From: Actinomycetes bacterium | GTDB taxonomy: Bacteria > Actinomycetota > Actinomycetes > Mycobacteriales > Mycobacteriaceae | Direction of reading: 5' to 3' | DNA: 64,000 bases | Assembly (NCBI GenBank): GCA_029780675.1 | Contig: JAKOYE010000185.1 | Span: 6,893-70,892, forward strand | Part shown: one piece after another, positions 30,906 through 58,458 of the stretch | Layout: each line of letters starts with the position of its first letter | Numbering within the stretch: the stretch's first letter is position 1 | Position numbers and translations under genes: made by a program | The notes under the pieces: generated by a model | What the model saw: the letters and a program-made list of their open reading frames with translations, nothing else | Told to the model about the DNA's origin: nothing | Databases searched by the model: none

Positions 30906-30911
30906 CAGTGC

Positions 30912-35680: not shown

Positions 35681-36235
35681 GTGACGACAGACTGGCGAGG
35701 GTGGTCCGACGCCCTCACGGCGCGTGTGGCCGGGGCTGTAAGAACGCGACGGGCTGCGTTGGGGCTGACTGCGGCCGAACTCTCCGATAGGACCGTCGTC
35801 GGCAAGCCGCTGACACGGGCTGTGATTTCAGACTTAGAAACAGGCCGAAAGAAGTCGCTGGAGATTGTTGAACTTCTGACTCTCGCTGCAGCACTTGATA
35901 TTCCGCCGGTCTTGCTTCTGTTCCCGGGATACCCAGATGGTGAGATCGAGGTACTTCCAGGGAGGATGCTTGATTCCGAGGACGCGGCTCTATGGATGGC
36001 GGGGGAAATCGGGCTGCCGGAAGAAGACGACGGCGGGAGCCGCGGCGTTGAGCTTGTCCGAGCAGTAGGCGAACTGCGGCACCGGCGTCTAGAGGAGCGT
36101 CTAGAGGTATTGCGCCAAGCAGAGGCTGGAGACGCCGAGACGGCGAAGGTGCTCAAGCTGCACGAGAGAGAGATTTTCTACCTACAGCAACGCATCGAAG
36201 GCGCTCGCGCCGATCTCTGGGGCGGGGATGCCTAG
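35681..36235 (+). CDS. XRE-family HTH repressor
   Basis: GTG start. HTH LGLTAAELSDRTVVGKPLTRAVISDLETGRKK. Divergent from xis. Confidence 0.75.
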   Translation: MTTDWRGWSDALTARVAGAVRTRRAALGLTAAELSDRTVVGKPLTRAVISDLETGRKKSLEIVELLTLAAALDIPPVLLLFPGYPDGEIEVLPGRMLDSEDAALWMAGEIGLPEEDDGGSRGVELVRAVGELRHRRLEERLEVLRQAEAGDAETAKVLKLHEREIFYLQQRIEGARADLWGGDA

Positions 36236-37388
36236 GCAGCGGATGGCACCGGGGGAGCACGGCCGGGTGACCGTGTCGAAGCTGGGCCGGGATCTGTTCG
36301 AGGCCCGAACCTACGTCCGTGACGGTGATGGGGTACGACGCAAGGTTCGCCGCACCGGACGATCCGATGAGGATGCCCGCCGGGAACTGCAACGGCACCT
36401 TGCTGGCCGGCGCACGCCGCTGACGGGGCAGGCCGTCACCGAGCGGACAACGCTCTCCGAGCTGTTCGAGGCGTGGATCGACAGGAAGGTTGCCGAGGAC
36501 AAGCTGATGCCGCAGTCGGAGGCCCAGTACCGCACGGTGTGGCGGGTCCACGGAGCCGACAAGCTCGGCGCGCTACGCATCCGGGAATTGCCCACCAGCC
36601 GCGCCGACGCCCACCTGAAGGGAATCGCCTCGGTGCGCCAGGCGCAACTGCTGCGCATCGTCCTGAAGGGCATGTTCACGTTGGCGGTCCGCTTCGACGT
36701 GATCGGGGTGAATCCGATCGCCGAGGCCCGACCGAATCGCGGCGAGAAACGTCCGGTCCGGGCCGCTACGCCCGCCGAGTTCCAGCGGGTCCGCAGGGCG
36801 GTCGCCGACTATGCGGGCACGGTGGTGCGGGGGCCGGCCAGGGGGCGTTACCTACCGGCGTTCGTTGAGCTGGCGATGGCCACCGGCGCCCGACCCGGCG
36901 AGGTGCTCGCGATCCGCTGGGAGGATGTCGACCTGCTCGCCGATCCGCCCACGGTGACCATCTCGGGGACCGTCATCGACCACCAGGGCGTCCCCGGCCT
37001 GCCTGCGCACCGGCAGGACACCCGCAAGCACGGTGCGCCGCCCCTGGTGACGTTCCTGCCCGTGCACGGTGTCGACGCGCTGACGAACCTGTTCGGTGTC
37101 ACCGGACCGACTGGTCTGGTGTTCAAGTCCCGCACCGGTGGTCCGATGTCGGCGAACAACCTGCGCCGGTCGCTGCGCGAGGCCCTTCCCGATGACCTGC
37201 GGTGGTGTACGCCGCACTCGTTCCGGCGGACAGCGGGCACCGTGGTCCGGGACGCCCACGGCGTCGAGGCGGCTCAGCAGCAGCTGGGCCACGCCCACCT
37301 GGCGACCACCGAGGGGCACTACGTGGAGCGGAAAACCACAGGTCCGGACGCCCGCAGCGCGCTTGATGCGTTCATGGATGGAAAGTAG
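36228..37388 (+). CDS. int: tyrosine integrase
   Basis: ATGARPGEVLAIRW (R), HSFRRTAGT (HxxR), LGHAHLATTEGHYVE (H..Y). It ends 72 nt from the tRNA 3' end. Confidence 0.9.
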   Translation: MPRQRMAPGEHGRVTVSKLGRDLFEARTYVRDGDGVRRKVRRTGRSDEDARRELQRHLAGRRTPLTGQAVTERTTLSELFEAWIDRKVAEDKLMPQSEAQYRTVWRVHGADKLGALRIRELPTSRADAHLKGIASVRQAQLLRIVLKGMFTLAVRFDVIGVNPIAEARPNRGEKRPVRAATPAEFQRVRRAVADYAGTVVRGPARGRYLPAFVELAMATGARPGEVLAIRWEDVDLLADPPTVTISGTVIDHQGVPGLPAHRQDTRKHGAPPLVTFLPVHGVDALTNLFGVTGPTGLVFKSRTGGPMSANNLRRSLREALPDDLRWCTPHSFRRTAGTVVRDAHGVEAAQQQLGHAHLATTEGHYVERKTTGPDARSALDAFMDGK

Positions 37389-37415
37389 TCGCCGAAAGTA
37401 GTCGGAAAGTAGTCG
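37381..37415. repeat. putative integrase arm-type sites (right arm, 3 copies)
   Basis: GAAAGTAGTCG occurs at 37381, 37394 and 37405, in direct orientation. The array overlaps the int stop codon. Confidence 0.5.
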
Positions 37416-37459
37416 ATTCCGGGGGTGTCCCGGTATCGGGTGCAGCGTTTCTGCTGGCT

Positions 37460-37497
37460 GTGGAGCCCCCTGTCGGGATTGAACCGACGACCTTTCG
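37460..37497. repeat. attR core (inside the functional tRNA-Thr)
   Basis: 38-nt match to 27193-27230. It covers the tRNA from the 3' strand of the anticodon stem to the CCA end. Confidence 0.85.
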
Positions 37498-37535
37498 CTT
37501 ACAAGGCGAGTGCTCTACCACTGAGCTAAGGAGGC
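37461..37535 (-). tRNA. tRNA-Thr (anticodon UGU), CCA encoded
   Basis: Folded by hand: GCCTCCT acceptor, GCTC/GAGC D-stem, CTTGTAA anticodon loop, GTCGG-TTCAATC-CCGAC T-arm, AGGGGGC-T-CCA. Confidence 0.9.
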
Positions 37536-39105: not shown

Positions 39106-40554
39106 GTGAAGGCAGCCATCCGCACGTCACGCGCGCTGCCACTGCGGGTGGAACTCGTCGCGGCGATGTTGCTGCTGGTGGCCTGCGGGCTGCTCGCCTC
39201 GGGAATCGCCGTGACGTCCATCCTGCGGCACAGCCTGTTCGACAGGGTCGATCAGACCCTGCTCGAGGCGTCCGAAGGCTGGGCGCAGGAACCACCGGAG
39301 GAGATACCCACCGACCGCGGACCCAACCCGGCACGCCCGCCGTCGAATTTCTATGTCCAGGCCATCGACGCGCGGGGAGACGTCTGGATGGCGGTCAACG
39401 ACCGCAAGGCCCGGCCATCGCTTCCCGAAGACGGTGATGTCGGTCCGATTCCGGTCACCATCGGATCTGACGGCAATTCCGACATCAGTTGGCGGGCCGT
39501 GTCGGTGGAAGGGCCCTATGGCGACCTCATCACCGTCGCGATGGATCTTTCCGACGTGCACGCAACGTTGCGTTCGCTGGTGTGGCTTCAGGCGGGCATC
39601 GGCGGCGGCGTCCTACTGATCCTCGGAGTCCTCGGCTACGCCGTGGTGCACCGCAGCCTGCGGCCGCTGGTCGAGGTCGAGGAGACCGCCGCGGCTATCG
39701 CGGCAGGTGAGTTGGACCGCCGAGTGCCGCAGCGTGATCCGCGCACCGAGGTGGGCCAACTGTCGCTCGCGTTGAACGGGATGCTGGCCCAGATCCAGCG
39801 CGCGGTGGCCGCCTCCGACGCCTCAGCGGATCAGGCGCGGCAATCCGAGGAGCGGATGCGCCGCTTCATCACCGATGCCAGCCACGAGTTGCGTACCCCG
39901 TTGACCACCATCCGCGGCTTCGCCGAGTTGTACCGCCAGGGCGCGGCGCGGGATCTGGACATCCTGATGTCGCGCATCGAGAGCGAGTCCCGGCGGATGG
40001 GGGTGCTCGTGGAGGACCTGCTGATGCTGGCCCGGGTGGACGCGCAGCGCCCCCTCGAGCGAGCCCGCGTCGATCTGCTGACGCTGGCCAGCGACGCCGT
40101 CCACGATGCCCGGGCCGTGGCGCCGCAACGTCAGATCACCCTGGAGGTGCTCGACGGACCCGGAACCCCCGAGGTGACGGGGGATGAGGCGAGGCTGCGG
40201 CAGGTCCTCGGGAATCTGGTCGCCAACGCCCTGCAACACACACCCGCGACCGCGCCGATCATTCTTCGGGTCGGGACCGTGGACTCCGATGCGGTGCTGG
40301 AGGTCCAGGACTCGGGTCCGGGGATGTCCGCCGAGGACGCCGACCGGGCCTTCGAGCGGTTCTACCGCGCGGATGGGTCCCGCACCCGGGCCAGCGGTGG
40401 TGCCGGGCTGGGGCTGTCCATCGTCGATTCACTCGTGCGCGCGCACGGCGGCCAGGTGATGGTGACCACGGAACCGGGCCGGGGCTGCTGCTTTCGGGTG
40501 GTCTTGCCCCGGGTGGGAGCTGAGATCAGTCCTCCGCCGCCAGAGCGGCTTTGA
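39106..40554 (+). CDS. phoR: sensor histidine kinase PhoR
   Basis: GTG 39106 follows the phoP stop. Has two TM segments, a HAMP domain, the H-box [17 protein letters not shown] and the G-box [10 protein letters not shown]. The track ORF start at 38950 lies inside phoP. Confidence 0.9.
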
Positions 40555-40930
40555 TCTTGGCCTGAGCTTCGTCGAGGGATTCCGGGGACGGGCTGCGGTC
40601 GACGTGGGCGAAGCCGAAATCGGTGAGGTTGTAGGCCGGGAACACGTGCACGTGCAGGTGCGGCACCTCCAGGCCGGCGATGATCATCCCGGCGCGCTGG
40701 GCGCCGAACGCACGGCAGACCGCCCGGCCGATGCGCTGTGAAACGTCCATCACTTTGTGGAACAGGGCCGGTTCGATGGTCTGCCAGTTGTCCACCTCGG
40801 CGCGCGGCACCACCAGGGTGTGCCCCGGCGTCATCGGTTCGATCGTGAGGAAGGCGACGACATCGTCGTCGGAGTAGACGAACCGGCCGGGCAGGTCCCC
40901 GTTGATGATCATCGTGAATACCGAAGCCAT
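40526..40930 (-). CDS. HIT-family nucleotide hydrolase (Rv0759c-like)
   Basis: Histidine triad HLHVHVFP. 134 aa. Its 3' end overlaps the phoR 3' end by 29 nt. Confidence 0.88.
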
Positions 40931-41208
40931 GGCCTCAGCCTAAGGGTCTGGGCTGACAGGAGTTCAGCCATGGCATCCGCCTTCGGCGGCCATGGCTATC
41001 GCGACACTTTCGTTACGGATAGGCCCAAACTTCCTGAATTTTCTTCATTTTTTTCCTGAGGATTAGACACTGGCGGGGTCTGTTTTTTGGGTTTTTTGTG
41101 TGATTGGGGTTTGCGGTGGCCGTCGTTTCTTCTTCTGGTTCGGGTCAGAGCGATGGTGGGTTGACGGCCGGGGTGGGTGTTCGTCCGATTTCGGTGGTGC
41201 GCCGGGGT

Positions 41209-41295
41209 ATGTGGCGTCCGGTGGGCGTGGGTCTCGGTGTGGGTCGGGTGGGGGCGTTGGCCGTTGCGTTGGGTATCGGCGCGGCGGTGGCGTAG
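41209..41295 (+). other. signal-peptide-like short ORF in frame with the giant ORF, ended by one TAG
   Basis: MWRPVGVGLGVGRVGALAVALGIGAAVA-TAG. The frame is open back to TTG 41104. 41296-41104 = 192, so it shares a frame with ORF 41296..51966. Confidence 0.5.
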
Positions 41296-44200
41296 TTGCC
41301 GGGTGTGGCGGCGGCGGATACGACGGGGTCGGCGGGATCGTCGGCGTCATCGGCGTCGGGTTCTGGTGCGTCGCGGTCGGGGTCCTCGGGTGGTGGGGGA
41401 CAGCGGGGTCAGGGGCGTTCGCCTCGGGGTGGGGTTTCGGGTCCGGCCGACGGGGTGGATTCGGTTGGAGAGGATTCGTCGGGGTCGTCGGGTTCGGATG
41501 CCGGTAAGCGAGTGTCCGGCGTATCCGACGGCGGGGCTTCGGCGTCTGCGCGTTCGGCCTCGGGTGTTGATGGTGGGCAGCGGCCGAGGCCGGTCGTCTC
41601 GGCGATCGGGGCCGGCGGCGTTGAGCGGGTGGGGGCGGCTGTTGCGCAGGTGACCCCGGTTGAGGTGCCGCTGGTGCCGGTTGACCGGGGTTTGGCGGGT
41701 CAGGAGTCCGGTGTGGTGTCCGGCGGCCCGGCGGGGGGCGCCCCGGTAGCGGGCGCGGTCGCGGCTGCTGGTGTACCCGGATCGGGTGTTCCGTCGGCTG
41801 TTGCGGCTCCGGCGCCGGCTGGGGTGGCGGCGGGGTCGGGGTTGTTGTCGTGGCTGGGTGTGGCGGCTTCGACTGTGGGTGGGGGTCCGGGTGGGCCGGG
41901 TGCGGCGCCGTTGGTGTGGGCTGCGGCCGCTGTTGGGCGCCGTGATCATCGTGGGCTTTCGGGGGGCGTGGGTGGCGCGGTGGTGGGCGCGGCCGCGGCG
42001 GTTGGTCCGGGTGGTGATCCGGGGGTGTCTGCTCAGGGCGCGGCCGCCGCTGCGGGCGGGTCGGATTCGCCGGGTTCGGTGTTGCTGGGTTCGGCGGCGG
42101 GTGCCTCGGTTCCGGGTGTGGTGGTGCCGGTCGCTTCTGCGGTGGGTGGCCCGTCGGGGTTCGCGTTGGGTGATGTGTGGCGGTTCTTCTTCGGTGATGG
42201 CACGGCGGAGAACCCCAATGGCGGGATTCTGATCGGGAACGGGTATTCGTGGACGGCGGATTCGTGCCCGGTGGGGTCGTCGTGCACGGGGGGCAATGGG
42301 GGGCTGATCGGTAGCGGCGGTGATGGTTTCAATGGCGGTGATGGGGGTTCGGCGGGCTGGTTCGGTGATGGTGGTGACGGTGGCGCGGGGGTGGCGTGGG
42401 TTGATTTCGGTGCCGGCGGTGACGGCGGTACCGGTGGGTTGTTGGTCGGCAATGGCGGCAATGGCGGGGCCGGGTGGTCGGCGGTCACTGATGTGGGCAC
42501 CGGCGGTGCCGGTGGCCGTGGCGGGAACACGGGGTTGTTGTCACTGGTCGGTGATGGCGGTGCCGGTGGTGCCGGGGGTGCGGGTGCACCCGGCGCGCAG
42601 GGGGGTGCCGGGTTGGGTGCGGCCGAGGCCGGCGGCGGCACCGGCGGCACGGGTGGCATGGGTGGTGTCGGTGGTGCCGGTGGTCGTGGTGGTGAGGGGA
42701 GTTGGGTGTTCGGGGCCGGCGGCGCCGGCGGTTCGGGGGGTGCTGGTGGTGTAGGTGGGGCGGGTGGTTCCGGTGTTGATGGGGCTGATGGCACGGCGGG
42801 TGACCGGGATGGTCGGGCCGGTGGTCACGGTGGTGATGGTGGTGCCGGTGGTGTGGGCGGTGTGGGGGGCGCGGCCGGCGGCGGGCGTTTGCTGTTCCTG
42901 TTCGACACTGCGGGTGTGGGTGGGGCCGGGGGTACCGGTGGTGCCGGCGGTACGGCGGGCCGGCCCGGTGATGGCGGTGCGGGTGCGGACAGCACCGATC
43001 CGGCTGTGGCCGGTGGCAACGGCGGGCGGGGCGGTAACCCCGGTAAGGCGGGTGTGGGTGGTACCGGGGGTGCGGGTGGGGCCGGTGGCGGTGTGGCCGG
43101 GGCTTCCGGTGGTGCCGGAGCACCGGTGGCGGGCCCGGCGGGTAATGGCGGTACGGGCGGTGCAGGTGCGGATAGCACCGATGTGGGTGTGGCTGGCGGG
43201 GATGGCGGCGCCGGTGGGGATGGCGGTCTGATCGGGGACGGTGGGGCCGGGGGTGTTGGTGGGCGTGGCGCGCCGGGGGCGTCGGGTGCGGCGGGATTGT
43301 CCGGTGGGGACAGTGGCGGCGATGGTCTTGCCGGTGGGGCGGGGGGTCGTGGCGGCACCGGCGGTGCCGGGGGCGCCCTGGCCGGGCACGGTGGTGCCGG
43401 TGGTCGTGGCGGGACCGGTGGCGCCGGTGGCGCGGGCGGGGCGGGTGTGTCCGGCGGGAACGGGATTTCTGCCGGGGAGTCCGGTGTTGATGGCGGGGAC
43501 GGCGGGGATGGCGGCGCAGGTGGTGCCGGCGGCGCCGGGGGTGTGGGTGGTGAGGCGAAAGCGCCGGGGTTCACCGGTGGTGTGGCCGGGCGTGGCGGTG
43601 ACGGCGGGACCGGTGGGGCGGCCGGGGATGCCGGTGACGGTGGTGCGGGCGCGTCCGGGAACGCCGCGGTCGCCGCCGGGGGTCATGGTGGCGCGGGTGG
43701 GGACCGTGGCCGGGCCGGCACCGGTGGCACCGGTGGTGGCGGGATTCTGCCGGGGGCCAGTGGGGTTTCGGGGGCGGCGGGTACCGGAGGTAACGGCGGA
43801 ACGGGTGGGGCGGGCTGGAACTCCACGGTGGTGGGGGCTTCCGGTGGTGCCGGCGGCAATGGTGGCGCGGGTGGCTCTCACGGTGATGGCGGCGCGGGTG
43901 GTGCTGGTGGTGCGGGTGGTTCCGGCCCGGATGGGGCGTCGGGTGCGGTCGCGGGTGCCGGCGGGGCCTCGGGTGTGGCCGGCGCGGCGGGTGGTCGGGG
44001 CGGTGACGGCGGTGCCGGCGGTGTGCTGGCCGGTCGTGGGGGTTCGGGCGGGGTTGGTGGTGCCGGCGGTGGTGGTGGTGCCGGTGGTGCCGGGATCACC
44101 GGAACCGGCGGGTTGGTGGGGGCCTCAGGGCAGGCCGGTGGGCACGGCGGCACCGGCGGTGCCGGCGGGACCGGCGGGGCCGGCGGTAATGGTGGGGCCG

Positions 44201-47200
44201 CGCAGGCCGTGGGCTTTGACTCGGGTGCTGCCGGGGTTGGTGGGTCCGGTGGCGCCGGGGGGTCCGGTGGTGTGGCCGGTGACGGCGGCACCGGCGGCGG
44301 CGGGGACGCCGCGGTGCGCGATGGCGGGACCGGCGGGACCGGCGGTAACCGCGGTGCCGGTGGGGCCGGTGGATCGGGTGGGGCCGGCGGGGCGATCCCA
44401 GGCGGAGGGAACGCCGCGGCCGGGGCCGCCGGCGCCCAGGGCGGTATCGGGATCTCCGGCGGTGATGGCGGTGCCGGGGGTGACGGGTACAGCTGGACCG
44501 CGACGGGCACCGGCAGCGCGGGTGGGCGTGGTGGTGATGGTGGCGCGGCCGGCACCTACGGCGATGGTGGTGCCGGTGGGCGTGGCGGGGCCGGGGACAG
44601 CGGCGCTGACGGTGCCATCGGTGGGCTGGTCGCCGCCGACACCGTGGGTGCCAGCGGTGCCAGCGGGATCGCCGGCGGCACGGGCGGTGCCGGGGGTAAC
44701 GGCGGGGCTGGTGGGACGATCGCCGGCACCAGTGGCGCCGGCGGGGCCGGCGGAACCGGCGGCACGGGTGGAGCCGGGGGCACCGGTGGGACCGGCGGCG
44801 ATGCCTCCGGTAACGGTGCGGCCGGGGCCCGTGGTGGCGCGGGTGGCACCGGCGGCGCCGGCGGCGCGGGCGGCACCGGCGGCACCGGATCAAGCGTGGG
44901 GGCCTCGGGCGTGGCCGGTGATGGTGGTGCCGGCGGGCGGGGTGGTACCGGCGGGCGGGGCGGGTTCGGCGCGACCGGTGCACCCGGTGGTGGGCAGGGT
45001 GTGATCGGCGCCCTCGGTGGGACCGGCGGCGCCGGTGGTGTCGGGGGCGCGGCCGGTGGCGCGGGAGCCGTCCAGGGTGTCGGTGGTGTCGGTGGTGATG
45101 GCGGCACCGGTGGCACCGGCGGCACCGGCGGCACCGGAACCGACAACAGCGGCCTGCTGAACACCGCGGGTGGGGCTGGTGGGCGTGGTGGTCAGGGCGG
45201 CGCCGGGGGTGCGGCCGGGGATGGTGGTGCGGGTTCTGCCACCGGCGGTGCGGGCAGCCAGGGTGATGGCGGGGCGGGCGGTCAGGGCGGTACCGGTGGC
45301 ACGGGTGGGTTCGGTTCCACCGGCAGCGCGGGTGGCGGGGACGGGGTGATCGGCGCCCAGGGTGGTGCGGGTGGCACTGGCGGCACGGGTGGTTCGGGTC
45401 GGGTTCAGGGTGTCGGCGGCAAGGGTGGTGACGGCGGGACCGGCGGCACGGGCGGCACGGGCGGGACCGGTACCGATAACAGCAACTCGCTGAATGTCCA
45501 GGGTGGTGCCGGCGGTCGTGGCGGTCAGGGCGGCAGTGGTGGTGCGGCCGGGGACGGCGGTGCCGGGGCGGGCAGCCTGGGTTCGGGTCTGGTCGGTATC
45601 GGCGGTACCGGCGGTCAGGGCGGTACCGGCGGCACGGGCGGCTTCGGATCGACCGGCTCCGCGGGTGGCGGGGACGGGGTGATCGGCGCCCAGGGCGGTG
45701 CCGGTGGCACCGGCGGCACCGGCGGTGTGGGTCGGGTTCAGGGTGTCGGCGGTAAGGGCGGTGACGGCGGCACCGGCGGAACCGGCGGTACCGGCGGGAC
45801 CGGAACCGACAACAGCAACACCGCGAACACGGTGGGTGGGGCTGGTGGGCGTGGTGGTCAGGGCGGCAGTGGTGGTGCGGCCGGGGACGCCGGTGCCGGG
45901 GCGGGCGGCCTGGGTTCGGGTCTGGTCGGTGTCGGTGGCGCGGGCGGTCAGGGTGGCACGGGCGGCACGGGTGGGTTCGGGTCCACCGGCTCTGCGGGTG
46001 GCGGGGACGGGGTGATCGGCGGCCAGGGTGGTGCGGGTGGCACCGGCGGCACCGGGGGTTCGGGTCGCAGCCAGGGTGTCGGCGGTAAGGGTGGTGACGG
46101 CGGCACCGGCGGTGCCGGTGGTGTCGGTGGCACGGGCGCCGACAACAGCAACACCGCGAACACCATCGGTGGGGCTGGTGGGCGTGGTGGTCAGGGCGGT
46201 AGTGGCGGTGCGGCCGGGGACGGCGGCGCGGGCTCGGGCAACTTGGGTTCGGGTCTGGTCGGTATCGGTGGCGCGGGCGGTCAGGGTGGCACCGGCGGCA
46301 CGGGTGGGTTCGGGTCCACCGGCAGCGCGGGCGGCGGGGACGGTTCCCTCGGCGCCCAGGGTGGTGCGGGTGGCACCGGCGGCACCGGGGGTTCGGGTCG
46401 GGTTCAGGGTGTCGGCGGCCAGGGCGGTGACGGCGGCACCGGCGGTGCCGGTGGTGTCGGCGGCACCGGAACCGACAACAGTGGCCTGCTGAACACCGCG
46501 GGTGGGGCTGGTGGGCGTGGTGGTCAGGGCGGCGCCGGGGGTGCGGCCGGGGATGGTGGTGCGGGTTCTGCCACCGGCGGTGCGGGCAGCCAGGGTGATG
46601 GCGGGACGGGCGGTCAGGGCGGTACGGGTGGCACGGGTGGGTTCGGGTCCACCGGGTCGGCTGGTGGCGGCGATGGGGTGATCGGTGGCCAGGGTGGTGC
46701 GGGTGGCACCGGCGGCACGGGTGGTTCGGGCCGCAGCCAGGGTGTGGGCGGCAAAGGCGGTGACGGCGGGACCGGCGGGACCGGCGGCACGGGCGGGACC
46801 GGTACCGACAACAGCAATGCACTGAATGCCCAGGGTGGGGCCGGCGGTCGTGGCGGTCAGGGCGGTAGTGGGGGCGCGGCCGGGGACGGCGGCACCGGCT
46901 TCGGCAGCCTTGGTTCGGGTCTGGTCGGTGTCGGCGGGGCGGGCGGTCAGGGCGGTACCGGTGGCACGGGTGGGTTCGGGTCCACCGGCTCTGCGGGTGG
47001 CGGGGACGGGGTGATCGGCGGCCAGGGTGGTGCCGGTGGCACCGGCGGCACCGGGGGTTCGGGTCGCAGCCAGGGGGTCGGCGGTAAGGGTGGTGACGGC
47101 GGCACCGGCGGGACCGGTGGTGTCGGCGGGACCGGTACCGACAACAGCAACACCGCCAACACCGTGGGTGGGGCTGGCGGTCGTGGTGGTCAGGGCGGCA

Positions 47201-50200
47201 GTGGGGGTGCGGCCGGTGACGGCGGCACCGGATCAGCCAGCCTCGGTTCAGGTTTGGTCGGTATCGGCGGGGCCGGCGGTCAGGGCGGCACCGGCGGCAC
47301 CGGCGGCTACGGATCCACCGGCAGCGCGGGCGGCGGCGACGGGGTGATCGGCGCCCAGGGCGGTGCGGGTGGCACCGGCGGCACCGGCGGGGTCGGCAGG
47401 GCTCAGGGGGTCGGCGGCAAGGGTGGTGACGGCGGCACCGGCGGCACCGGCGGAACCGGTGGCACCGGAACCGACAACAGCGCGGTGGTGAACGCCGCCG
47501 GTGGTGCCGGTGGGCGTGGCGGTCAGGGCGGCAGTGGTGGTGCGGCCGGGGACGGCGGCGCCGGCTCGAGCAGCCTGGGTTCGGGTTTGGTCGGTATCGG
47601 TGGGGCCGGCGGTCAGGGCGGCACCGGCGGCACCGGCGGCTACGGGTCCACCGGCAGCGCGGGCGGCGGCGACGGGGTGATCGGTGGCCAGGGCGGTGCG
47701 GGTGGCACCGGTGGTACCGGTGGTTTGGGTCGGGCTCAGGGTGTCGGCGGCAAGGGTGGTGACGGCGGCACCGGCGGTGCGGGGGGTGTCGGCGGCACGG
47801 GTACCGACAACACCAATTCGGCGAACACCGTGGGTGGTGCCGGCGGTCGTGGTGGTCAGGGCGGCTTCGGGGGTGCGGCCGGGGACGCCGGCGCGGGCTT
47901 GGGCAGCCTGGGTTCGGGTCTTATCGGTGTCGGTGGTGCCGGTGGTCAGGGTGGCACCGGCGGCACCGGCGGGTTCGGATCCACCGGCAGCGCGGGTGGC
48001 GGCAGTGGGGTGATCGGCGCCCAGGGCGGTGCGGGTGGCACCGGCGGTACGGGTGGTCTGGGTCGGGCTCAGGGTGTCGGCGGTAAGGGTGGTGACGGCG
48101 GCACCGGCGGCACCGGCGGCACCGGTGGCGCGGGCACCGATAACAGTGCTTCGGTCAACACTGTCGGTGGGGTCGGTGGGCGTGGCGGTCAGGGCGGTAC
48201 CGGCGGTGCGGCAGGGGACGCCGGTGTGGGTTCGGGCAGCCTGGGTTCCGGGAATGCCGGTAACGGCGGCGCGGGTGGGCGCGGTGGTGTCGGCGGCACC
48301 GGCGGGACGGGCTCTTCCACGGCTGGAGGGACGTTCACCGGGGCTGGGGTGACTATCCCCAGCAGCGGTACGGGCACGCCGTATCCGTCGGTGATCACGG
48401 TGTCGGGTCTGACCGGCGCGACGCTGAACACCGTCACGATCACCGGGTTCTCCCACGGCTACCCCGAAGATGTGGACATGGCGTTGGTCGCCCCGGATGG
48501 CAGCCAGGTGTTGTTGCTGTCCTACAACGGCGGGAGCACCCCGGTGAGCGGTCTGACGATCGTGTTCGCCGACGGGGCGCCGGCACTGCCGGATCCGCTG
48601 ACTTCGGGTATTTATCGCACGACCACGAACCCCGGTTGGAATGGTCCGGTGCTGACGCCGCCGTTCGGGTCGTTGCTGTCCTCGTTCACCGGGGACGTCA
48701 ACGGGGCCTGGAATCTCTACGTCTTCGACGCCTCCGCCGGTAGTGGCGGGTCGCTGGGGTCGTGGGCGCTGGGATTCGTGGTGCCCGCTGATGGCGCCTC
48801 CGGGGGGATGGGCGCGTTCGGCGGGGCCGGGGGTACCGGCGGTACCGGTGGTGATCCGGGCTCCGGGGGCGGCGGGTTGCAGGGTGTTGGCGGGGCCGGT
48901 GGTGTCGGTGGTGTCGGTGGTGTCGGTGGTGTGGGCAGTGATGGCATCGCCGCGGCCGGCCCGACGGTCAGCGGTGGAAACGGCGGGGATGGCGGTAAGG
49001 GCGGCACCGGTGGTACCGGTGGTGCCGGCGGGATCGGCAGGGGGGGGCAGGCGGCTGCCGGTACCGGTGGTCGGGGTGGGACCGGCGGGGCCCCGGGTGA
49101 TGGTGGTACCGGGGCGGCCGGGACGGCGGGTCATCTTGACGGCAGCACCGGCGGTAACGGAGGCAACGGTGGTGCCGGGGGTGATCCGGGTGCCCCGGGC
49201 GGGCCGGGTGCGGGTAGCGGGGGCTTTGGGGCGGCCTCGACCGCGCCGGGTAACGGCGGGGCCGGTGGGGACGGCTACAGCTGGACTGACACCAACACCG
49301 CCAGCGCCGGTGGTAATGGCGGGGCCGGCGGTGATGCCGGGAACTACGGCACCGGTGGGACCGGCGGGCGCGGTGGGCGTGGGGACTCCGGGCCGGTGGG
49401 GGTCAACCCCGGCCCAGTCGGCGGCCAAGCCGCGCCAGGCGCCCCGGACTACGTGGGTGCGTCACCCGGTTCGATCGGGGATTCGACGGTGGGTATCGAC
49501 AGCGCGTCCGGTGCCGCCGGCGGGGTCGGGTCCATCGGGTCGGTCGGGCAGACCGGTGGTGACGGCGGTGACGGCCAGTGGGCGTTGGGCGGTGTCTCGG
49601 CGGTCGGCGGGATCGGCGGTACCGGCGGGACCGGTGGAACCGGGGCGGCCGGCGGGCAGGGCGGTAGCGGTGGGGTGGCCGCGGTGTACGGCGACGGCGG
49701 GTTGGTCGTCGGCGGTGCCGGCGGTCAGGGCGGTGCAGGTGGCCTGGGTGCGGTCGGGGGTACCGGCGGGACCGGCGGGTACGCGGTCGCCCCGGTCGGG
49801 CCCGGAACCGCCGGGCCGGGCGGTAAGGGCGGCACCGGCGGTGCGGGCGCCAGCGGCGGTTCGGGCGGTTCGGGCGGTAACGGCGGCACCGGCGGCAAGG
49901 GCGGCCTGATCAGCGGTGACGGCGGACTCGGCGGGGCGGCCGGTACCGGCGGCACCGGCGGGACCGGTGCTCAGGGTGGCGTCGGCGGCCAGGGTGGCGA
50001 CGGCGGTGTCGGCTACATCGGGCTCAACGGCGGAGCCGCTGGCGACGGTGGTGACGGCGGCGCTGGTGGCACCGGCGGCGGTGGCGGGGCCGCGGGAACC
50101 CCGGGTGCCGGTGGCGCCCCGGTCGGATCGGGTGTCACCGGGGCCTCCGGAGCGGTCGGGACCACCGGCAGCACCGGGGCCAGCGGGGCCACCGGGGCGA

Positions 50201-51966
50201 CGGGCGCATCCGGGTCTGCCGGGGACAGCAATGTCGCGACCCTGACTGACGATTACGGACTGGCCATCGGCAACGGCAACAACGGTGTCAGCCCCGGAGC
50301 CTCCGGCGCCAGCGGCGGCTGGCTCTACGGCAACGGCGGTAACGGGGTGGCCGGTTCGGCGGACGGCGCACCCGGCGGCCCCGGCGGTGACGCCGGACTC
50401 ATCGGCAACGGCGGCAACGGCGGCAACGGTGCCCCCGGCGACATCAGCGGACTCGGCGGAAACGGCGGCGACGGCGGCGACGGAGGCCTGATCTTCGGCG
50501 AGGGCGGCAACGGCGGAAGCGGCGGCAGCGCCGCACCGGCCGGCGGGCAGGCCACCGGCGGAAACGGTGGCAAGGGCGGTAACGGCGGCGTGCTGCTCGG
50601 CAACGGCGGCAACGGCGGCACCGGTGGTGTAGCCACCTCCACAACCGATCCGGCCACCGGTGGCAATGGCGGCAACGGCGGCACCGGCGCCGGGATCTCC
50701 GACGGCAACGGCGGCTGGACCGGCGGCGGCGGTGCCGGCGGGGCAGGCGGTGACGCGTGGTCCGTCTCCGGAAACCCGGCGACCGGCGGTGGCGGCGGTG
50801 ACGGCGGAAACGCGTGGCAGGCGGATGGCCTACCCGCGACCGGCGGAAACGGCGGCACCGGTGGGCAGGCAATCAACTCCGACGTCTTTGGCCCGGCCAT
50901 CGGCGGAAACGGCGGAAGGGGCGGAAGCGGTCTGACCACCAACGCCAGTGGCGGCACCGGTGGGAACGGCGGCAACGCCAGCGCCGCCTTCGACACCGAC
51001 GCCTATGGTGGTGCCGGCGGGGCTGCCGGAAGCAGCGGCGGGGGCACCGGGGCTGCGGGCGATCCGGGGCAGCCGGGGATGTCGTACCCGATCGAAGTGC
51101 CTCCGGACAGCTCAGTCGTGGGCGCTAGTTCCGTGGCGTTGACCCCCGATGGGCAAACGGTGTACGCCACCAGCTGGGACGATGGCTACGTCGCGGTGAT
51201 CGACGCCGCCACAAACACCATCATCACCACCGTCACCGTCGGCATGCTACCGACCGGGGTGGCGGTGAACCCCATCCTCAACGAGGCCTATGTCGCCAAC
51301 AACGGCACCAACGACGTCACGGTGATCGACACCGGCACCAACGCCGTGGTCGATACGATCGGCGGCGGAACGCGCCCGCAACAGCTCACGGTGAACCAGG
51401 GCGGCACCCGGATCTACGTCACCAATGAAGGCAGCGGCACAGTTTCTGTGGTGAACACCGCTGACCGATCACTCGTCGCGGCGATCACCGTCGGCAGCAC
51501 CCCCTGGGGATTGGCGCTCACCCCGGACGGATCCCGGCTCTACGTCGCCAACCTCGGAGACGACACGGTCTCGGTCATCACGACCGTTGACAACACAGTT
51601 CTCGGCACGATTGCCGTTGGTGACGAACCGCAGGGGGTTGCCGTCAGCCCCGACGGTTCCCGGGTGTACGTGGCCAACAACGCCGATGGCACCGTCTCGG
51701 TGATCGACACCGCGACCAACACCGTCACCAACACCATCCCGATCGCGGCGGGTGCCTTTCCCGCGTTCCTGCAGGTCGACCCCAACGGCGCCTGGCTCTA
51801 CGTGACCAACAACGGATCCAACACCGTGTCGGTCATCAGCACCACAAGCAACATGGTCTTCGCCACCCTCGGCGCTCCGGGCGGCGTGAAGGGCCTCGTG
51901 GCGACCGGCACGATCCTGTGGGTGGCCGGGCAGGGCAGCGGCGTCGTACACCGGTACGCGGTGTGA
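41296..51966 (+). CDS. giant PGRS-like glycine-repeat protein with P-domain and YVTN beta-propeller (possibly a pseudogene or N-terminally mis-delimited)
   Basis: A 10,671-nt frame with no stop. GGxGGxGG / GNGGxGG repeats run throughout, and two non-repetitive globular segments lie in the same frame. The antisense ORFs are only Pro/Arg-rich shadows. Confidence 0.8.
44965..48294 (+). repeat. 10 x 333-nt in-frame tandem repeat inside the giant ORF
   Basis: The GA(C/T)AACA(G/C)N (T-D-N-S/T) landmark occurs at 45142, 45475, 45808, 46141, 46474, 46807, 47140, 47473, 47806 and 48139, exactly 333 nt apart each time. Confidence 0.95.
48331..48786 (+). other. proprotein-convertase-type P-domain embedded in the giant ORF
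   Basis: [28 protein letters not shown] ... [31 protein letters not shown] matches the H-x-x-x-x-D-L ... G-x-W-x-L-x-V-x-D ... G-x-L-x-x-W-x-L pattern of the P_proprotein family. Confidence 0.65.
51079..51963 (+). other. C-terminal YVTN-family beta-propeller (about 7 blades) of the giant ORF
   Basis: Reiterated units of about 40 aa, P.G[VL]A[VL][ST]PDG..[VL]YV[AT]N......V[ST]VI[DT]T..N.V...I.VG (e.g. [33 protein letters not shown]). Confidence 0.8.
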
Positions 51967-51988
51967 CGCGCGAGTGGCGACGGAGAAC

Positions 51989-52018
51989 GCGCCGGGGTGG
52001 CTACCACCGCCCTGGCGC
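51989..52018. terminator. GC-rich hairpin between convergent genes
   Basis: gcgccggggtgg-ctacca-ccgccctggcgc forms a 12-bp stem (2 G-U pairs) with a 6-nt loop. It lies 23 nt after the giant ORF stop. No U-tract is present. Confidence 0.4.
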
Positions 52019-52028
52019 CGTCACCGCC

Positions 52029-52451
52029 TCAGGTGACCTGCCCGAACTGCATGCCCTCGAGGTTCCAGTAGCCCCGTAGGTTGGCGATCTTGCCGTCGTC
52101 GTTGACGCGGTAGCAGAACACCCCGCGGACGGTACTGGTGAAGCCGCCTTCGAAACGGCTGCGCAGCACCAGGATGTGCGCCACCTCGTTGGGGGAACTG
52201 GACGGGAAGGTCTCTTCGCAGGTGACGGTGAGGTCGTTGGCAGCGATGTTGGTGTCATAGAAGGCAGCCAGAGCTTCCTTACCGCGCACACCGTGGCCGT
52301 CCGGGTTGGTCACCGACGGCCCGATCGGGTCCTCGACGACGACGTCGTCGGCCATCAGGGCCAGCCAGCCCTCACGGTCGTGGGACTGGACGCACCGCCA
52401 GGACGCCAGGGAGGCGGCCATGGCGGGCGTCAGGCCTGCGGCGTCTGCCAT
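52029..52451 (-). CDS. NTF2/SnoaL-fold ketosteroid-isomerase-like protein (Rv0760c-like)
   Basis: 140 aa. Contains the REGWLALMADDVVVEDP motif region typical of SnoaL/KSI-like proteins. Confidence 0.75.
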   Translation of the reverse strand: MADAAGLTPAMAASLASWRCVQSHDREGWLALMADDVVVEDPIGPSVTNPDGHGVRGKEALAAFYDTNIAANDLTVTCEETFPSSSPNEVAHILVLRSRFEGGFTSTVRGVFCYRVNDDGKIANLRGYWNLEGMQFGQVT

Positions 52452-52458
52452 ACCGGGC

Positions 52459-53586
52459 TTACCGGTCTTCGTCGGTGTAGCGGATGACGCCGCGGATGTT
52501 GCGTCCCTCGAGCATGTCCCGGTAGCCGTCGTTGATCTGCTCGAGGCGGTACTGGCGGGTGACCATATCGTCGAGGTTCAGCCTGCCGGCCTTGTACATC
52601 GACAGAAGTTGCGGGATGTCGTAGTAGGGGTTGCCGCCACCGAAGATGGTGCCCTGCAGGTTCTTCTGCATCAGGGTCAGCATCGCCAGGTTCAGCGTGA
52701 CGTTGGTGTCGACCATGCTGCCGATGGCGGTCAGCACGCAGGTGCCCGACTTGGCGGTGATCATCATGTAGTTCTCCACGTCGGAGCCCTGCAACTCACC
52801 GACGGTGACGATCACCTTCTTGCACATGAAGCCGCCGGTCGCCTCGGCGATGCCCATCAGGGCGGCGTTGATGTCCTCGTAGACGTGGGTGGCGCCGAAC
52901 TTCAGCGCCTGGTCGCGCTTCCATTCCACCGGGTCGATGACGAAGATCTTGCGGGCACCGGAATTGACCGCGCCCTGCAGGGCGGCCATGCCGACCCCGC
53001 CGACGCCGACGACGGCGACATCCTCGCCCGGCTTGATCTGGGCGGTGTGGGTGGCCGAACCCCATCCGGTGGTGACCCCGCAGCCCACCAGGCAGGCCAC
53101 CTCGAACGGGATGGACGGGTCGATCTTCACCACCGAGGACTCGTGGACGACCATGTACGGGGAGAAGGTGCCCAACAGCGTCATCGGGAACACCGGTTGC
53201 CCCTTGGCGGTGATCCGGTGGGTGCCGTCGGCGATCGCCACGCCACCGAGCAGACCGGCACCCAGGTCGCAGAGGTTGCGCAGGCCGGCCTGACAGGACG
53301 GACACTTGCCGCAGGACGGGATGAAGGACATCACCACGTGATCGCCCGGGGCGACGCTGGTGACGCCCGCGCCGACCTCGGTGACGATCCCGGCCCCTTC
53401 ATGGCCGCCCAGCACCGGGAAGCCCAGCATCGGGATGCCGCCAGTCACCAGGTGGTGGTCGGAGTGGCACATGCCGGAGGCTTCCATCTGCACCTTGACC
53501 TCGCCCGGCTGGGGATCGCCGATCTCAATCTCCTCGATCGACCAGGGCTGGTTGAACTCCCAGATGAGCGCGCCTTTTGTCTTCAT
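52459..53586 (-). CDS. adhB: zinc-dependent alcohol dehydrogenase
   Basis: Carries GHEGAGIV, the structural-zinc cysteines CGKCPSC, and the GVGGVG NAD motif. Confidence 0.9.
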   Translation of the reverse strand: MKTKGALIWEFNQPWSIEEIEIGDPQPGEVKVQMEASGMCHSDHHLVTGGIPMLGFPVLGGHEGAGIVTEVGAGVTSVAPGDHVVMSFIPSCGKCPSCQAGLRNLCDLGAGLLGGVAIADGTHRITAKGQPVFPMTLLGTFSPYMVVHESSVVKIDPSIPFEVACLVGCGVTTGWGSATHTAQIKPGEDVAVVGVGGVGMAALQGAVNSGARKIFVIDPVEWKRDQALKFGATHVYEDINAALMGIAEATGGFMCKKVIVTVGELQGSDVENYMMITAKSGTCVLTAIGSMVDTNVTLNLAMLTLMQKNLQGTIFGGGNPYYDIPQLLSMYKAGRLNLDDMVTRQYRLEQINDGYRDMLEGRNIRGVIRYTDEDR

Positions 53587-53659
53587 ACAAACCTCCGCCT
53601 GGTCGAGTGATCGAGAACACGATCGGTAAGGGCCATCCTATGACTTGACGGGTGTCGAG

Positions 53660-54223
53660 TCACCAGATGGGCACCGGTGCCTGTCCGATCGGGTAGTACC
53701 CGGGCAACTTCTCGCCGGCGAGGCTGCGTTCGATGCGTGCCTGCATGCCCGCCGACAGCTTGCCGTCCTTCATCAACTCCAGGTACAGCTTCTGCACGTG
53801 GCCGAAGTCGAAGAAGTCGCGCTGCCACTCGATGAGCGCCGTCCCGTTCCGGCCGGTCAGCCGGAACCAACTCCCGCCGATGCCGTAGATCTCATAGGAC
53901 TTCCCGGCTGGATCGTCGGGGTCGGCCGCCACCTGCTTCCAGAACCCGACGATCTCGCCGATCTTCTCGTCGATGAGCACCCGCTGGTAGGGGTAGGTCC
54001 AGCCCTGTAGGCCCGCCATCTCCAAACCGAGTGCGATGTCGCGGATTTCGTCTTTGCCGACGCACATCACGTCCTCTTTGGGACCGATGTTCCAGCCGTA
54101 GGTGGCGTCGTCGGTGTAGAAGTTGGCGAGCCCGGACCAGTCCCCGGCGCGTTCGGCGGTCCGGTTGGCGTCGAGCCATCGCTGGACGAAGTCCTCGAGT
54201 TGTTCGCGGGGTAACGCCGCCAT
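53660..54223 (-). CDS. NTF2-like hypothetical protein (Rv0762c-like)
   Basis: 187 aa. Its start is adjacent to the ferredoxin stop. Confidence 0.6.
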   Translation of the reverse strand: MAALPREQLEDFVQRWLDANRTAERAGDWSGLANFYTDDATYGWNIGPKEDVMCVGKDEIRDIALGLEMAGLQGWTYPYQRVLIDEKIGEIVGFWKQVAADPDDPAGKSYEIYGIGGSWFRLTGRNGTALIEWQRDFFDFGHVQKLYLELMKDGKLSAGMQARIERSLAGEKLPGYYPIGQAPVPIW

Positions 54224-55787
<1,564 letters not shown>

Positions 55788-55791
<4 letters not shown>

Positions 55792-56609
55792 GGTGAGCCC
55801 TCCGGGTATGTGAGTTGCTGACGTTCCCGCGGCGCGCTGGACAGCGGCGCCTCCGGTTGCAGTTCGATCGAGGTGACGAACCCGCCGCGGGGGGTTTCGG
55901 CGACGAAGGCGATCGCTCGGGCCAGATCGGCGGCGCGTAGGAAATACGAGTGCCGGGCCTGCCCCCACTTCGCCCAGTCCTCGAGGGCGGCGGCGATGGC
56001 ATCGGGTGGCAGGGTCCAGCCCATCTCGGTCTGCGTGGGGCCGGGATGGACGACGGACGCCCGCACTCCGGTGCCCTCGAGTTCCATCTGCAGGTTGGTG
56101 ACCATGGCGACCAGGCCGGCCTTGGCCGCGCCGTAGGCGCCCATGTGTGGGCGCTGGCGCAGGGCGACATCCGAACCGATGAAGATGACGTCGCCGCGTT
56201 GCCGGCGCACCATGCCGGGCAGCACGGCGGTCGCCAGGCGGTTGGCGCCGATGAGGTGGGTCTGGATCTGCGCCTCGAACTCCCGGGTGCTGGTCTCGTA
56301 CACCCGGCCGAAGTGGGTGTCGCCGGCGCCGGCCACCAGGACCTCGATGTCTCCGAGTTCGTCGGTCGCCCGCCGGACGAACTCCTCGACCGAGTCGGCG
56401 TCGGTGACGTCGAGGGGCAGTGCCACCGCCTCGCCGCCGCCGGCGCGGATCGCGGCGGCGATCTCGGCGCACCTGTCGACGCGGCGGGCGCCGAGGGCCA
56501 CCGGGAAACCGCGGGCGGCGAGTTCGGTGGCGGTGGCCGCGCCGATTCCCGAGGAGGCGCCGGCTACGAGGGTGGGCCGGCGGGCCGGGTGGGGGTCGAA
56601 TCGGGGCAT
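55788..56609 (-). CDS. short-chain dehydrogenase/reductase (Rv0765c-like)
   Basis: Carries VAGASSGIGAA and the YGAAK catalytic motif. Confidence 0.88.
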
Positions 56610-56616
56610 CAGGGCA

Positions 56617-57834
56617 TCAGGCTTTCGTCACGGTGATCGGCAACCGGGCGAAACCACGCACGTTGCTGGAATGCACCCGCACGGCGTTGGCTTCGTCGAC
56701 CTCGAAATCGCTGACTCGACAGAGCAGTTCGGCCAGCGCTACCCGGGCTTCCATCCTGGCCAGGTGGGCGCCCAGACAGAAGTGCGCTCCGCTGCCGAAA
56801 CTCAGCAGCGTCGAACCGATGTCGCGGCCGATGCGGAATTCGTCAGGGTCGTCGAAGACTCGCTCGTCGCGATGCGCCGAGCCCGGCAGCAGCAACAGGG
56901 TGTCCCCGGAGCGCAGCGTCGTGCCGTGGCATTCGATGTCCACGGCGACCTCCCGGGCCAGGATCTGGCTCGAGGTGTCATAGCGCAGGGTCTCCTCGAC
57001 CCACAGCGGTATCCGCGACCGGTCGGCGACGACGCCGGCGAGCTGATCGGGGTGACGGGCACCCCAAAAGACCGCGTTTCCCAGCAGTTTCGTCGTCGTC
57101 TCGTTCCCCGCGACGACCATGAGGAACAGGAAGGCCATGATCTCCTCGTCGGCGAGGCGGTCGCCGTCGATCTCCGCGGTCAGTAGCGCGGAGGTCAGAT
57201 CGTCACCGGGGTTCCGCCGTCGCTGCCGGACCATCTCGGCGTAGTAGGTCAGCAGGTCCATCGCCGCGACGAGCGCGGCCCGCGGGACGTCGGTGATCCC
57301 GTCCTCGCGGTGCATCACCGTATCGGCGAGCACCCGCAGTTGCCCGCGGTCCGCGGGTGGCACTCCGACGAGATCGGAGATGACGTCCATCGGCAGCTTG
57401 CCGGCGAAATCAGTGATGTAGTCGAAGGATTCGCTCTGCATCGCGGTGTCGAGGTGGGCCCGGGTGAGCTCCCGGACCCGGGGTTCCAGCTCGCGGATCC
57501 GCCGTGGGGTGAACCCCTTGGAGACCAGCGTCCGCAGCCGCAGGTGTCCGGGGTCGTCCATCGCCAGGAAGGACATCGTCCGGTAGGCCTCCGGTGTCCG
57601 GGAGATCGGGTCCAGGGACACCCCGAGCCGGTTGGACAGCTCAGTGCTGTTCCGGAAACCCCAGTGGACGTCGGCGTGTCGGCTCAGCGCCCAGAAGTTC
57701 AGGTCGTCGTTGCGGTAGAGCGGACACTCGGCGCGCAGTCGCCGGTAGTACGGGTAGGGGTCCTCGTGGAAGTCGTAGTCATACGGGTCGAGAACCGGGT
57801 CTGCGACGGGATCCATGAGGCTGCCGGCCATCAT
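56617..57834 (-). CDS. cyp123: cytochrome P450
   Basis: Haem loop FGSGAHFCLGAHLARME and ExxR (EETLRY). Its position next to cyp51 matches M. tuberculosis. Confidence 0.85.
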   Translation of the reverse strand: MMAGSLMDPVADPVLDPYDYDFHEDPYPYYRRLRAECPLYRNDDLNFWALSRHADVHWGFRNSTELSNRLGVSLDPISRTPEAYRTMSFLAMDDPGHLRLRTLVSKGFTPRRIRELEPRVRELTRAHLDTAMQSESFDYITDFAGKLPMDVISDLVGVPPADRGQLRVLADTVMHREDGITDVPRAALVAAMDLLTYYAEMVRQRRRNPGDDLTSALLTAEIDGDRLADEEIMAFLFLMVVAGNETTTKLLGNAVFWGARHPDQLAGVVADRSRIPLWVEETLRYDTSSQILAREVAVDIECHGTTLRSGDTLLLLPGSAHRDERVFDDPDEFRIGRDIGSTLLSFGSGAHFCLGAHLARMEARVALAELLCRVSDFEVDEANAVRVHSSNVRGFARLPITVTKA

Positions 57835-58427: not shown

Positions 58428-58458
58428 ATGTCCACGGTAGTGCGGGATTCTCGGCCGA

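Follow-up and report, generated by a model that had tools for sequence, protein, structure and literature searches.

Nearly all work on PGRS proteins has treated them as PE-linked virulence factors that slow-growing pathogens secrete through ESX-5. In the PGII-sandwich "sail" model of PE_PGRS proteins, the PGRS domains are built of polyglycine II (PGII) helices with 3–4 triplets per helix (PMC9436101), and a 2025 review notes that M. smegmatis and Mycolicibacterium have PGRS domains whose N-termini are uncertain (PMC11939664). Here we describe a single giant gene in a 64,000-nucleotide stretch of contig JAKOYE010000185.1 (assembly GCA_029780675.1), referred to below as the window. The gene encodes a PGRS-type protein with a predicted Sec-type leader in a rapid-grower-type environmental mycobacterium, and the locus thus bears on how PGRS proteins fold, by what route they reach the surface and where they originate. 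Sequence comparison places the giant protein as an extreme, expanded member of a large unnamed family in which one N-terminal module (the N-module) appears to be combined with interchangeable cargo. We consider this family a more interesting part of the finding than the giant gene itself.

The closest described proteins are the PE_PGRS proteins, such as PE_PGRS33 and PE_PGRS35/PecA. Like them, the giant has a (GGX)n region with a module C-terminal to the repeats and is polymorphic among strains, and the cargo of its family overlaps with that of PE/PPE proteins (PecA-like PE-PGRS_C protease, PE-PPE hydrolase, TNT). Unlike them, it has no PE domain but instead a Sec-type leader, a spacer and a junction with two cysteines, and its GILIGNG resembles but is not the GRPLI linker (motif definition in PMC9436101). 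Its host is of the rapid-grower, environmental type, its 3,585 residues are far above the size of a typical PE_PGRS protein, and most of its repeats are poor in aromatic residues and score below the PGRS model. The PGRS proteins reviewed from M. smegmatis and Mycolicibacterium are similar in belonging to nonpathogenic rapid growers and in having no confirmed N-terminal PE domain; the review, however, gives no N-module, family definition or cargo survey (PMC11939664). RTX adhesins and serine-rich repeat (SRR) glycoproteins share with the giant a similar logic, in which a conserved leader for export is followed by a long repetitive extender and by ligand-binding modules at the distal end, and in giant adhesins, too, the binding tip varies by allele. 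In contrast to these adhesins, the repeats here are GGX rather than Ig-like, RTX or SRR repeats, the envelope is mycobacterial, and there is no type I secretion signal, LPXTG motif or accessory-Sec signature.

The gene and its coding evidence

The open reading frame (ORF) lies on the + strand and runs from a TTG at 41296 to the stop codon at 51966 (3,556 codons, ~10.7 kb). With its leader, which an amber codon separates from the body in the window, the restored gene covers 41209–51966 and has 3,585 codons. The following features are found along it:

41209–41295, +: leader (signal-peptide) segment MWRPVGVGLGVGRVGALAVALGIGAAVA, ending in the amber codon at 41293–41295 (codon 29)
41296–42156, +: end of the leader, LPGVAAA-D (AxA site), then a Ser/Gly/Ala/Pro/Val low-complexity spacer
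42157–42486, +: conserved junction domain, with Cys codons at 42265–42267 and 42283–42285
42487–45069, +: irregular Gly-rich (GGX)n region, with PGRS-style motifs at its N-terminal end
45070–48300, +: tandem array of nine full 111-aa (333-bp) units and a partial one, ~9.7 copies
48328–48780, +: proprotein-convertase-type P-domain (β-sandwich; PF01483, 24.9 bits, cut-off 21)
48781–51078, +: C-terminal Gly-rich region, holding a GXY run and a Pfam PGRS segment
51079–51966, +: seven-blade YVTN/YncE-type β-propeller (TIGR02276; the domain itself at 51079–51963) and stop codon

The base composition of the gene is unusual, with a GC content of 75–79% and a GC skew of +0.3 to +0.4 over 42–50 kb in a genome of 68% GC. 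Glycine makes up ~50% of every 100-residue block between aa 400 and 3200 and ~47% of the protein overall, and the only two cysteines in the 3,585 residues are the junction pair. Between units of the tandem array, the ratio of nonsynonymous to synonymous substitution rates (dN/dS) is 0.22 in the ORF frame; in each of the other two, dN is greater than dS, and 61% of the nucleotide differences between units fall at third codon positions. These values indicate that the array is translated in the ORF frame and is under selection. The gene is real and selected, and its repeats have a coding history in this frame.

The same organism was found in about twenty contigs from metagenomes and metagenome-assembled genomes (MAGs), at 95–100% identity, by exact-protein look-up with the neighboring HIT and KSI-like proteins. 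An earlier reading of the window made from the sequence alone had claimed a single giant ORF and had named an assembly chimera as one way in which that claim could fail. The window is matched colinearly by contigs of other samples, which speaks against a chimera: the ENA contig ERZ778036 runs through the entire gene and, before 50931, shows a single mismatch in the gene body, the JGI contig 3300010340 covers 44127–56331 with 1 mismatch and no gaps, and ERZ27257420 is colinear over 45304–61680. Contigs L100 and L091 are colinear across the array. Several short-read contigs stop at ~45155–45273, the start of the array, and say nothing on copy number. The gene, including its 9.7 × 333-bp array, is thus confirmed by independent metagenome assemblies, and the frame that was claimed, open for 3556 codons and with a coding signature, stands. 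The start proposed at 41104 is in the same frame, but the TAG at 41293–41295 parts that stretch from the ORF.

Public gene calls at the locus are unreliable. In the window and in contigs L001–L008, they start the giant at 41980 or 43582 and put spurious antisense ORFs (200, 381 and 446 aa) into its Gly-rich region. A 3,328-aa product, with no Pfam match on record, is recorded for the giant in ERZ778036. A homologue search returned no close orthologue, but it also missed this recorded product of the same gene; the statement that related species have no orthologue is therefore based on the 80 genome loci described below and not on that search. Wrong starts and antisense calls imply that genes of this kind are systematically under-annotated.

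An unnamed family of N-modules

The junction of the giant (query aa 291–500) was used in a full HMMER (phmmer) search of 1.84 billion representatives. It matched 317 representatives, that is, clusters at 50% identity, at E ≤ 1e-3 and 196 at E ≤ 1e-10, with 50–75% identity and a best value of 6.8e-38. The junction begins with RxFxG[DN] and carries the motif GDGTA..GILxGNGYSWT, and its two cysteines are invariant in the two alignments made (A3 and A4). Upstream, members share a leader pattern, ..[YH][VI]GRVGALAVALG[VI]G..., which is followed 10–12 residues on by AxA-D in 65 of the 69 motif-bearing sequences; the mature sequence often starts with DTTGSAGS. Within the low-complexity spacer lies a further motif, PLxWAAxAxxRR[ED], found in 47 of 154 family sequences and in the A3 consensus. 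The giant carries this motif at 41908–41943 together with the two-Cys junction, and it also has the leader with its AxA-D site.

The N-module is not covered by any Pfam, NCBIfam or PDB entry. A junction profile run against PDB sequences gave only noise at E = 0.25, and thus no related solved structure, and no PLSDB plasmid matched the junction in tblastn. No paper was found in a literature search on the family motifs, and a search on "non-PE PGRS" retrieved only the 2025 review (PMC11939664). Junctions of the family give sub-threshold matches to PGRS (24.5 and 21.1 bits). Only one member has a database name, "VCBS domain-containing protein [Mycobacterium sp.]".

After a short Gly-rich stretch, the C-termini of family members differ widely. 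A Pfam survey of 47 long members found YVTN/Lactonase propellers, Big_9, Calx-beta and C-type lectin (Lectin_C) domains, as well as a PE-PGRS_C aspartyl peptidase (E 4e-50), a TNT toxin (1.5e-24) and a PE-PPE domain. Enzymes are also represented, with β-lactamase, GH12, FGE-sulfatase, GSDH, PhoX and α/β hydrolases, and the cargo of further members includes cadherin, C39-like, pentapeptide repeats and large helical repeats. A YVTN propeller forms the C-terminal end of at least 10 of 153 representatives, with 28–41% identity to that of the giant. The 53 members of at least 600 aa contain 12–30% Gly overall, compared with ~47% in the giant. These comparisons place the giant as an extreme, expanded member of a large unnamed family with an N-module and interchangeable cargo. 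The sequence-only reading had not recognized the architecture as a characterized one; it is not an orphan, as the N-module is common to 317 representatives and propeller cargo recurs.

One class of cargo is unlike the others in kind. In members P0145, P0193 and P0159, the N-module sits on 1,000–2,000 aa of helical repeats (weak DUF445 matches) ending in hydrophobic stretches, and this class is possibly membrane-embedded.

The leader and its amber codon

When the amber codon is restored, the leader reads GRVGALAVALGIGAAVAWLPGVAAA and is followed by D, in agreement with the family leader. Position 41294 is an A, giving TAG, in the window and in six contigs (L001, L002, L003, L006, L007 and L008), and a G, giving TGG (Trp), in L004 (GCA_054404135.1) and L010 (SRR26268931). 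In the latter two the ORF is uninterrupted from the ATG at 41209 to the contig end. Trp is also found at the position of codon 29 in family members P0130, P0142 and P0145, and the window allele is thus W29amber, a derived state that arose by a TGG>TAG change. All 3,556 codons after the TAG are intact in every contig compared, so the lesion looks recent. The window allele is most likely a recent null whose product is either not made or not exported; a product restarted at the TTG at 41296 would have no leader. The sequence-only reading had noted a signal-peptide-like segment ahead of the protein. This segment is indeed the leader of the gene, although the TAG that cuts it from the body had gone unnoticed.

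The domain searches that the same reading had proposed matched the P-domain and the YVTN propeller but not PE. The restored N-terminus (440 aa) and those of two relatives show no PE match in Pfam at E ≤ 10 and nothing in NCBIfam, and the whole giant protein has no PE match either; at this threshold the restored N-terminus matches no other family. The predicted absence of a PE-type domain is borne out. Models of Tat signals and of the lipobox likewise gave no match on the restored N-terminus at E ≤ 10. Tat export was rejected on this ground, and a lipoprotein was rejected because the leader has no Cys. Export that is independent of PE and ESX and of the Sec type is plausible, since the leader and its AxA-D site are conserved family-wide. 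To this extent the earlier proposal of ESX-5/PE-independent export can be kept for the family, but in the window strain the leader is severed by the amber codon.

The glycine-rich region

The first part of the Gly-rich region (42487–45069) has no Pfam match that reaches threshold. It is followed by the tandem array, for which Tandem Repeats Finder reports a period of 333 bp and 9.6 copies at 45073–48275. In the protein, the array spans aa 1259–2335 and consists of nine exact 111-aa units and a partial tenth, with a mean aa identity of 83%. Two units used as a homologue query gave 8000 candidates, none at E ≤ 1e-3, and neither the 111-aa unit nor the P-domain has a BLAST match among the 153 family representatives.

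GGX phasing runs throughout the Gly-rich region and is its dominant period. Runs of at least two GGX triplets span 50% of the region and are mostly 3–6 triplets long, and X is mostly Ala or Thr. Canonical PGRS motifs, in which G[ND]GG.GG comes after two hydrophobic residues, cluster only after the junction and at aa 3035–3110. In a Pfam scan of ten 300-aa chunks, PGRS (PF21526) scores 42 bits at aa 2991–3058 (50266–50469; cut-off 27); one further chunk reaches 14.6 bits, and six chunks without aa 2991–3058 give nothing. Of the repeats that had been described as PGRS-like, only aa 2991–3058 pass the Pfam model. The GGX runs fit the geometry of PGII helices, and by analogy the Gly-rich region of the giant could form a PGII stalk.

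A short collagen-like GXY run had also been pointed out. It is present at aa 2946–2978 (50131–50229), with 11 triplets compared with a maximum of 7 in 200 shuffles. A collagen-like triple helix was rejected, as the run has only 11 triplets, is without Pro and has no Pfam Collagen match (E ≤ 1).

The P-domain and the propeller

Both globular modules that had been read from the sequence are confirmed in place. The P-domain matches PF01483 above its cut-off, and an AlphaFold2 (AF2) model built with six homologues has a pLDDT of 76. In a Foldseek search of the PDB with this model, the top 25 matches are P-domains of furin and Kex2 (TM ~0.55, E ~1e-4), followed by the Aeromonas sobria protease. A proprotein convertase enzyme was considered and rejected: Peptidase_S8 has no match in the whole giant protein or in chunks of it, and the P-domain is flanked by Gly repeats. 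By sequence, the P-domain is nearest to small secreted proteins of non-mycobacterial origin, with at most 48% identity, and this suggests that the domain was acquired.

The C-terminal propeller has six repeat matches to TIGR02276 (225 bits) and matches both YNCE (55.6 bits, cut-off 27.1) and Lactonase (55.6 bits). Its 294 residues, at 42 per blade, correspond to ~7 blades.

Variation among strains

Contigs L094, L095 and L096 have KSI-like and alcohol dehydrogenase genes that are nucleotide-identical to those of the window (dN = dS = 0), and yet they differ from it within the giant. L095 diverges only at 50500–51966, where the propeller is 62% identical in aa (dS 0.53, dN/dS 0.55), and the divergence ends at the stop codon. 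L096 shares this alternative propeller but diverges over 48000–51966, with a P-domain 78% and a C-terminal Gly region 90% identical to those of the window. L094 diverges at 48500–49500, and its P-domain is a recombinant of the two alleles; the P-domain alleles in L094 and L096 have 78–90% identity. All three alleles keep the frame to the contig end, with dN/dS of 0.14–0.55, which argues for old alleles shuffled by recombination and not for decay. The predicted binding modules thus exist as deeply divergent, recombining alleles among conspecific strains. Block mosaicism of this kind is as expected of putative exposed binding modules, and it makes the gene literally a "polymorphic GC-rich sequence".

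A second polymorphic patch lies outside the gene at ~58750–62250, with up to ~6–7% difference per 250 bp in L094–L096 and L099. Its position amid near-identical sequence suggests that mosaic recombination also occurs elsewhere in the genome.

Insertion at the locus and a compact relative

The genes at the locus stand in the order phoP, phoR, HIT, giant, KSI-like gene and NDMA-type alcohol dehydrogenase. The features around the giant are as follows:

40526–40930, −: HIT
40955–41208, +: left end of the insert and 5′ untranslated/promoter region, with a T-rich tract at ~41036–41100
51967–52028, +: 3′ spacer and right end of the insert, as seen against the seven empty sites named below
52029–52451, −: KSI-like gene
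41347–41949, 42541–43881 and 44096–46822, −: spurious antisense public gene calls

The locus was compared with 80 Mycolicibacterium/Mycobacterium loci, found by scanning one genome per species with HIT (best identity 90%); the window species itself is not in that collection. MAGs of Mycolicibacterium and Mycobacterium of the rapid-grower type are the nearest relatives. In 7 of the 80 loci (L011, L017, L019, L027, L038, L063 and L087), the closest relative among them, the KSI-like gene ends ~30 bp from the start of HIT, and most other loci with both genes have 0.9–4.6 kb of unrelated genes between them. No Gly-rich ORF, P-domain or propeller was found between HIT and KSI in any of the 80. When the window is aligned with the empty site of L011, homology breaks off near 40954 and starts again at 52029, the KSI stop codon. 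The insert of ~11.07 kb has the giant as its sole gene and breaks a co-directional ADH-KSI-HIT (ADH, alcohol dehydrogenase) string present in the relatives. The giant is therefore an insertion of ~11 kb that is specific to its lineage and separates HIT from the KSI-like gene, and the sequence-only proposal of such an insertion is upheld by the seven abutting sites.

No mobility gene was found, and the insert ends showed no target-site duplication or terminal inverted repeats; the search of the ends yielded only a GC-rich 9–10-mer that lies away from the boundaries. Scans for promoters and terminators were negative at either end of the gene, with no σ70 consensus or terminator in 40955–41208. 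The T-rich tract at 41036–41100 (TTTTCTTCATTTTTTTCC ... TCTGTTTTTTGGGTTTTTTGTG), in the divergent intergenic region between HIT and the giant, is unusual at 68% GC. Directly upstream of it, at ~40978–41008, lies a GC-rich palindrome, GCCATGGC..CCGCCTTCGGCGG..GCCATGGC.

A compact member of the family is encoded at 16524–20057 of L038, from the MAG Mycobacterium sp. STL-ACT21. This protein of 1,177 aa has the same leader, the RRE motif (PxxxxA..RRE) and the junction, followed by a ~700-aa Gly region and a YVTN propeller. Its gene is a few kilobases from phoPR but on the opposite side, and the HIT-KSI site of L038 is empty. It is colinear with the C-terminal ~1,050 residues of the giant, with 45% identity over 1,082 columns when no composition correction is applied. 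With the correction, only the alignment of the propeller stays significant, so homology of the Gly regions rests on the shared non-Gly landmarks: PNYVGATPGDAGDS.V..D, QWALG, the GXY run and GGWLYGNGG. On this comparison, the giant is a ~1,200-aa layout of N-module, Gly region and propeller that has been enlarged by ~2,150 aa. The parts added are a ~860-aa irregular Gly block, the 10 × 111-aa array and the P-domain. That two species have family members close to phoPR could be chance, or it could point to a variable region or to a regulatory link.

Other features of the neighborhood were noted. phoR (+, ending at 40554) and HIT (−, ending at 40526) converge with a 29-bp overlap of their 3′ ends, as they do in related loci. 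At 27160–37459, a ~10.3-kb integrative prophage-like element adjoins a tRNA-Thr gene (37461–37535, −); it contains two tyrosine integrases (34079–34957, −, and 36228–37388, +), a DUF2742 gene and HTH genes. L004, which has the intact TGG allele, is without this element and has 912 bp of other sequence in its place.

Discussion

We propose that the giant is a modular envelope or surface protein with a Sec leader, a Gly stalk and displayed modules. The family-specific Sec-type leader, with its AxA-D signal-peptidase site, would drive export and then be cleaved. The N-module, composed of the low-complexity spacer and a two-Cys disulfide junction, would sit in or span the envelope; that the sole two cysteines of the protein are the invariant junction pair fits an exported, disulfide-bonded module. 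The junction would start the PGRS-type (GGX)n region, a long stalk or sheet that would serve as an extended scaffold. This stalk would present the P-domain midway and the propeller at its distal C-terminus. Both are likely ligand-binding modules, and their specificity for external ligands may have been diversified by recombination. In the window strain, the product has probably been lost through W29amber. We favor this overall picture with somewhat better than even confidence, which is much higher for the integrity of the gene, its domains, family membership and insertion, the amber polymorphism and the mosaic alleles, and lower for fold and function.

Several observations weigh against the proposed picture. 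The window allele has a premature stop. Some family members have 40–100 residues before the hydrophobic motif, which could therefore be a membrane anchor rather than a cleaved leader, unless their gene starts are miscalled. Most of the Gly region fails the Pfam PGRS model, and it has few of the aromatic "edge" residues that PGRS domains usually show, with ~1 aromatic per 111 aa in the array. The AF2 model of three units has a pLDDT of 30, and the 111-aa units may be disordered rather than PGII. This leads to the alternative that the Gly bulk is disordered, elastomeric or matrix-forming, filling biofilm or cell wall, and that the globular modules are minor, a view also in line with the low aromatic content of the array and with the failure to find a homologue of the 111-aa unit. 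We regard this alternative as improbable but as one to be taken seriously. The multiple sequence alignment behind the model was shallow, with 7 near-identical paralogous rows, and so the failure of AF2 says little. Moreover, units that keep 83% aa identity under purifying selection, exact 111-aa spacing and strict GGX phasing are not readily expected of a disordered filler. A Ca2+-binding β-roll adhesin of the RTX type, which would agree with the Gly- and Asp-rich protein and its large, modular, adhesin-like layout, is very unlikely. The nonapeptide GGxGx[DN]x[hydrophobic]x occurs 5 times compared with 2.2 ± 1.5 in shuffles and is never tandem, the dominant period is the GGX triplet, and neither HemolysinCabind nor other Pfam repeat models match at E ≤ 1 on the ten 300-aa chunks. 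The Ca-binding β-roll-like stalk suggested in the sequence-only reading is thus not supported.

It could also be argued that the gene is dead in all strains, either as a decaying pseudogene or as a junk repeat expansion without function, as the window and most of the sampled contigs have the amber codon and the gene is missing from all 80 loci of related species. We consider this unlikely, for the codons beyond the amber are intact throughout and the TGG allele is open from 41209. Further, dN/dS is 0.14–0.55 between alleles and 0.22 between units, and even the divergent alleles of L094–L096 keep their frame. Least compatible with the N-terminus is an ordinary PE_PGRS protein exported by ESX-5, in which the PE domain was missed or mis-assembled. 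The PGRS-like composition, the PF21526 match and the overlap of family cargo with that of PE and PPE proteins (PE-PGRS_C, PE-PPE) would be accounted for. However, neither the restored N-terminus nor those of two relatives yield a PE match even at E ≤ 10, and what stands there is a family-conserved hydrophobic leader with AxA-D. In addition, the nearest relatives are of the rapid-grower type, a mycobacterial clade that to our knowledge is generally without ESX-5. The probability that we give this explanation is very small.

The locus and its family offer a tractable nonpathogenic system in which to ask whether PGRS is a display scaffold, whether a type VII system is needed and in what way the swapping of cargo evolves. 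Ready-made genetic contrasts for such work are given by the natural W29amber and Trp alleles and by the mosaic alleles of the P-domain and propeller. More tentatively, and as a possibility that we think falls well short of even, environmental mycobacteria may possess an unrecognized, Sec-dependent counterpart of the PE_PGRS proteins, in which a leader, a disulfide junction and a Gly stalk display interchangeable cargo (propellers, a PecA-like protease, TNT, hydrolases and lectins). Such a family might be an evolutionary reservoir for the PE/ESX-5 PGRS proteins of pathogens and for their cargo modules. The giant would then be its extreme form, with binding tips made hypervariable through recombination and through selection by phage, by grazers or for kin recognition.

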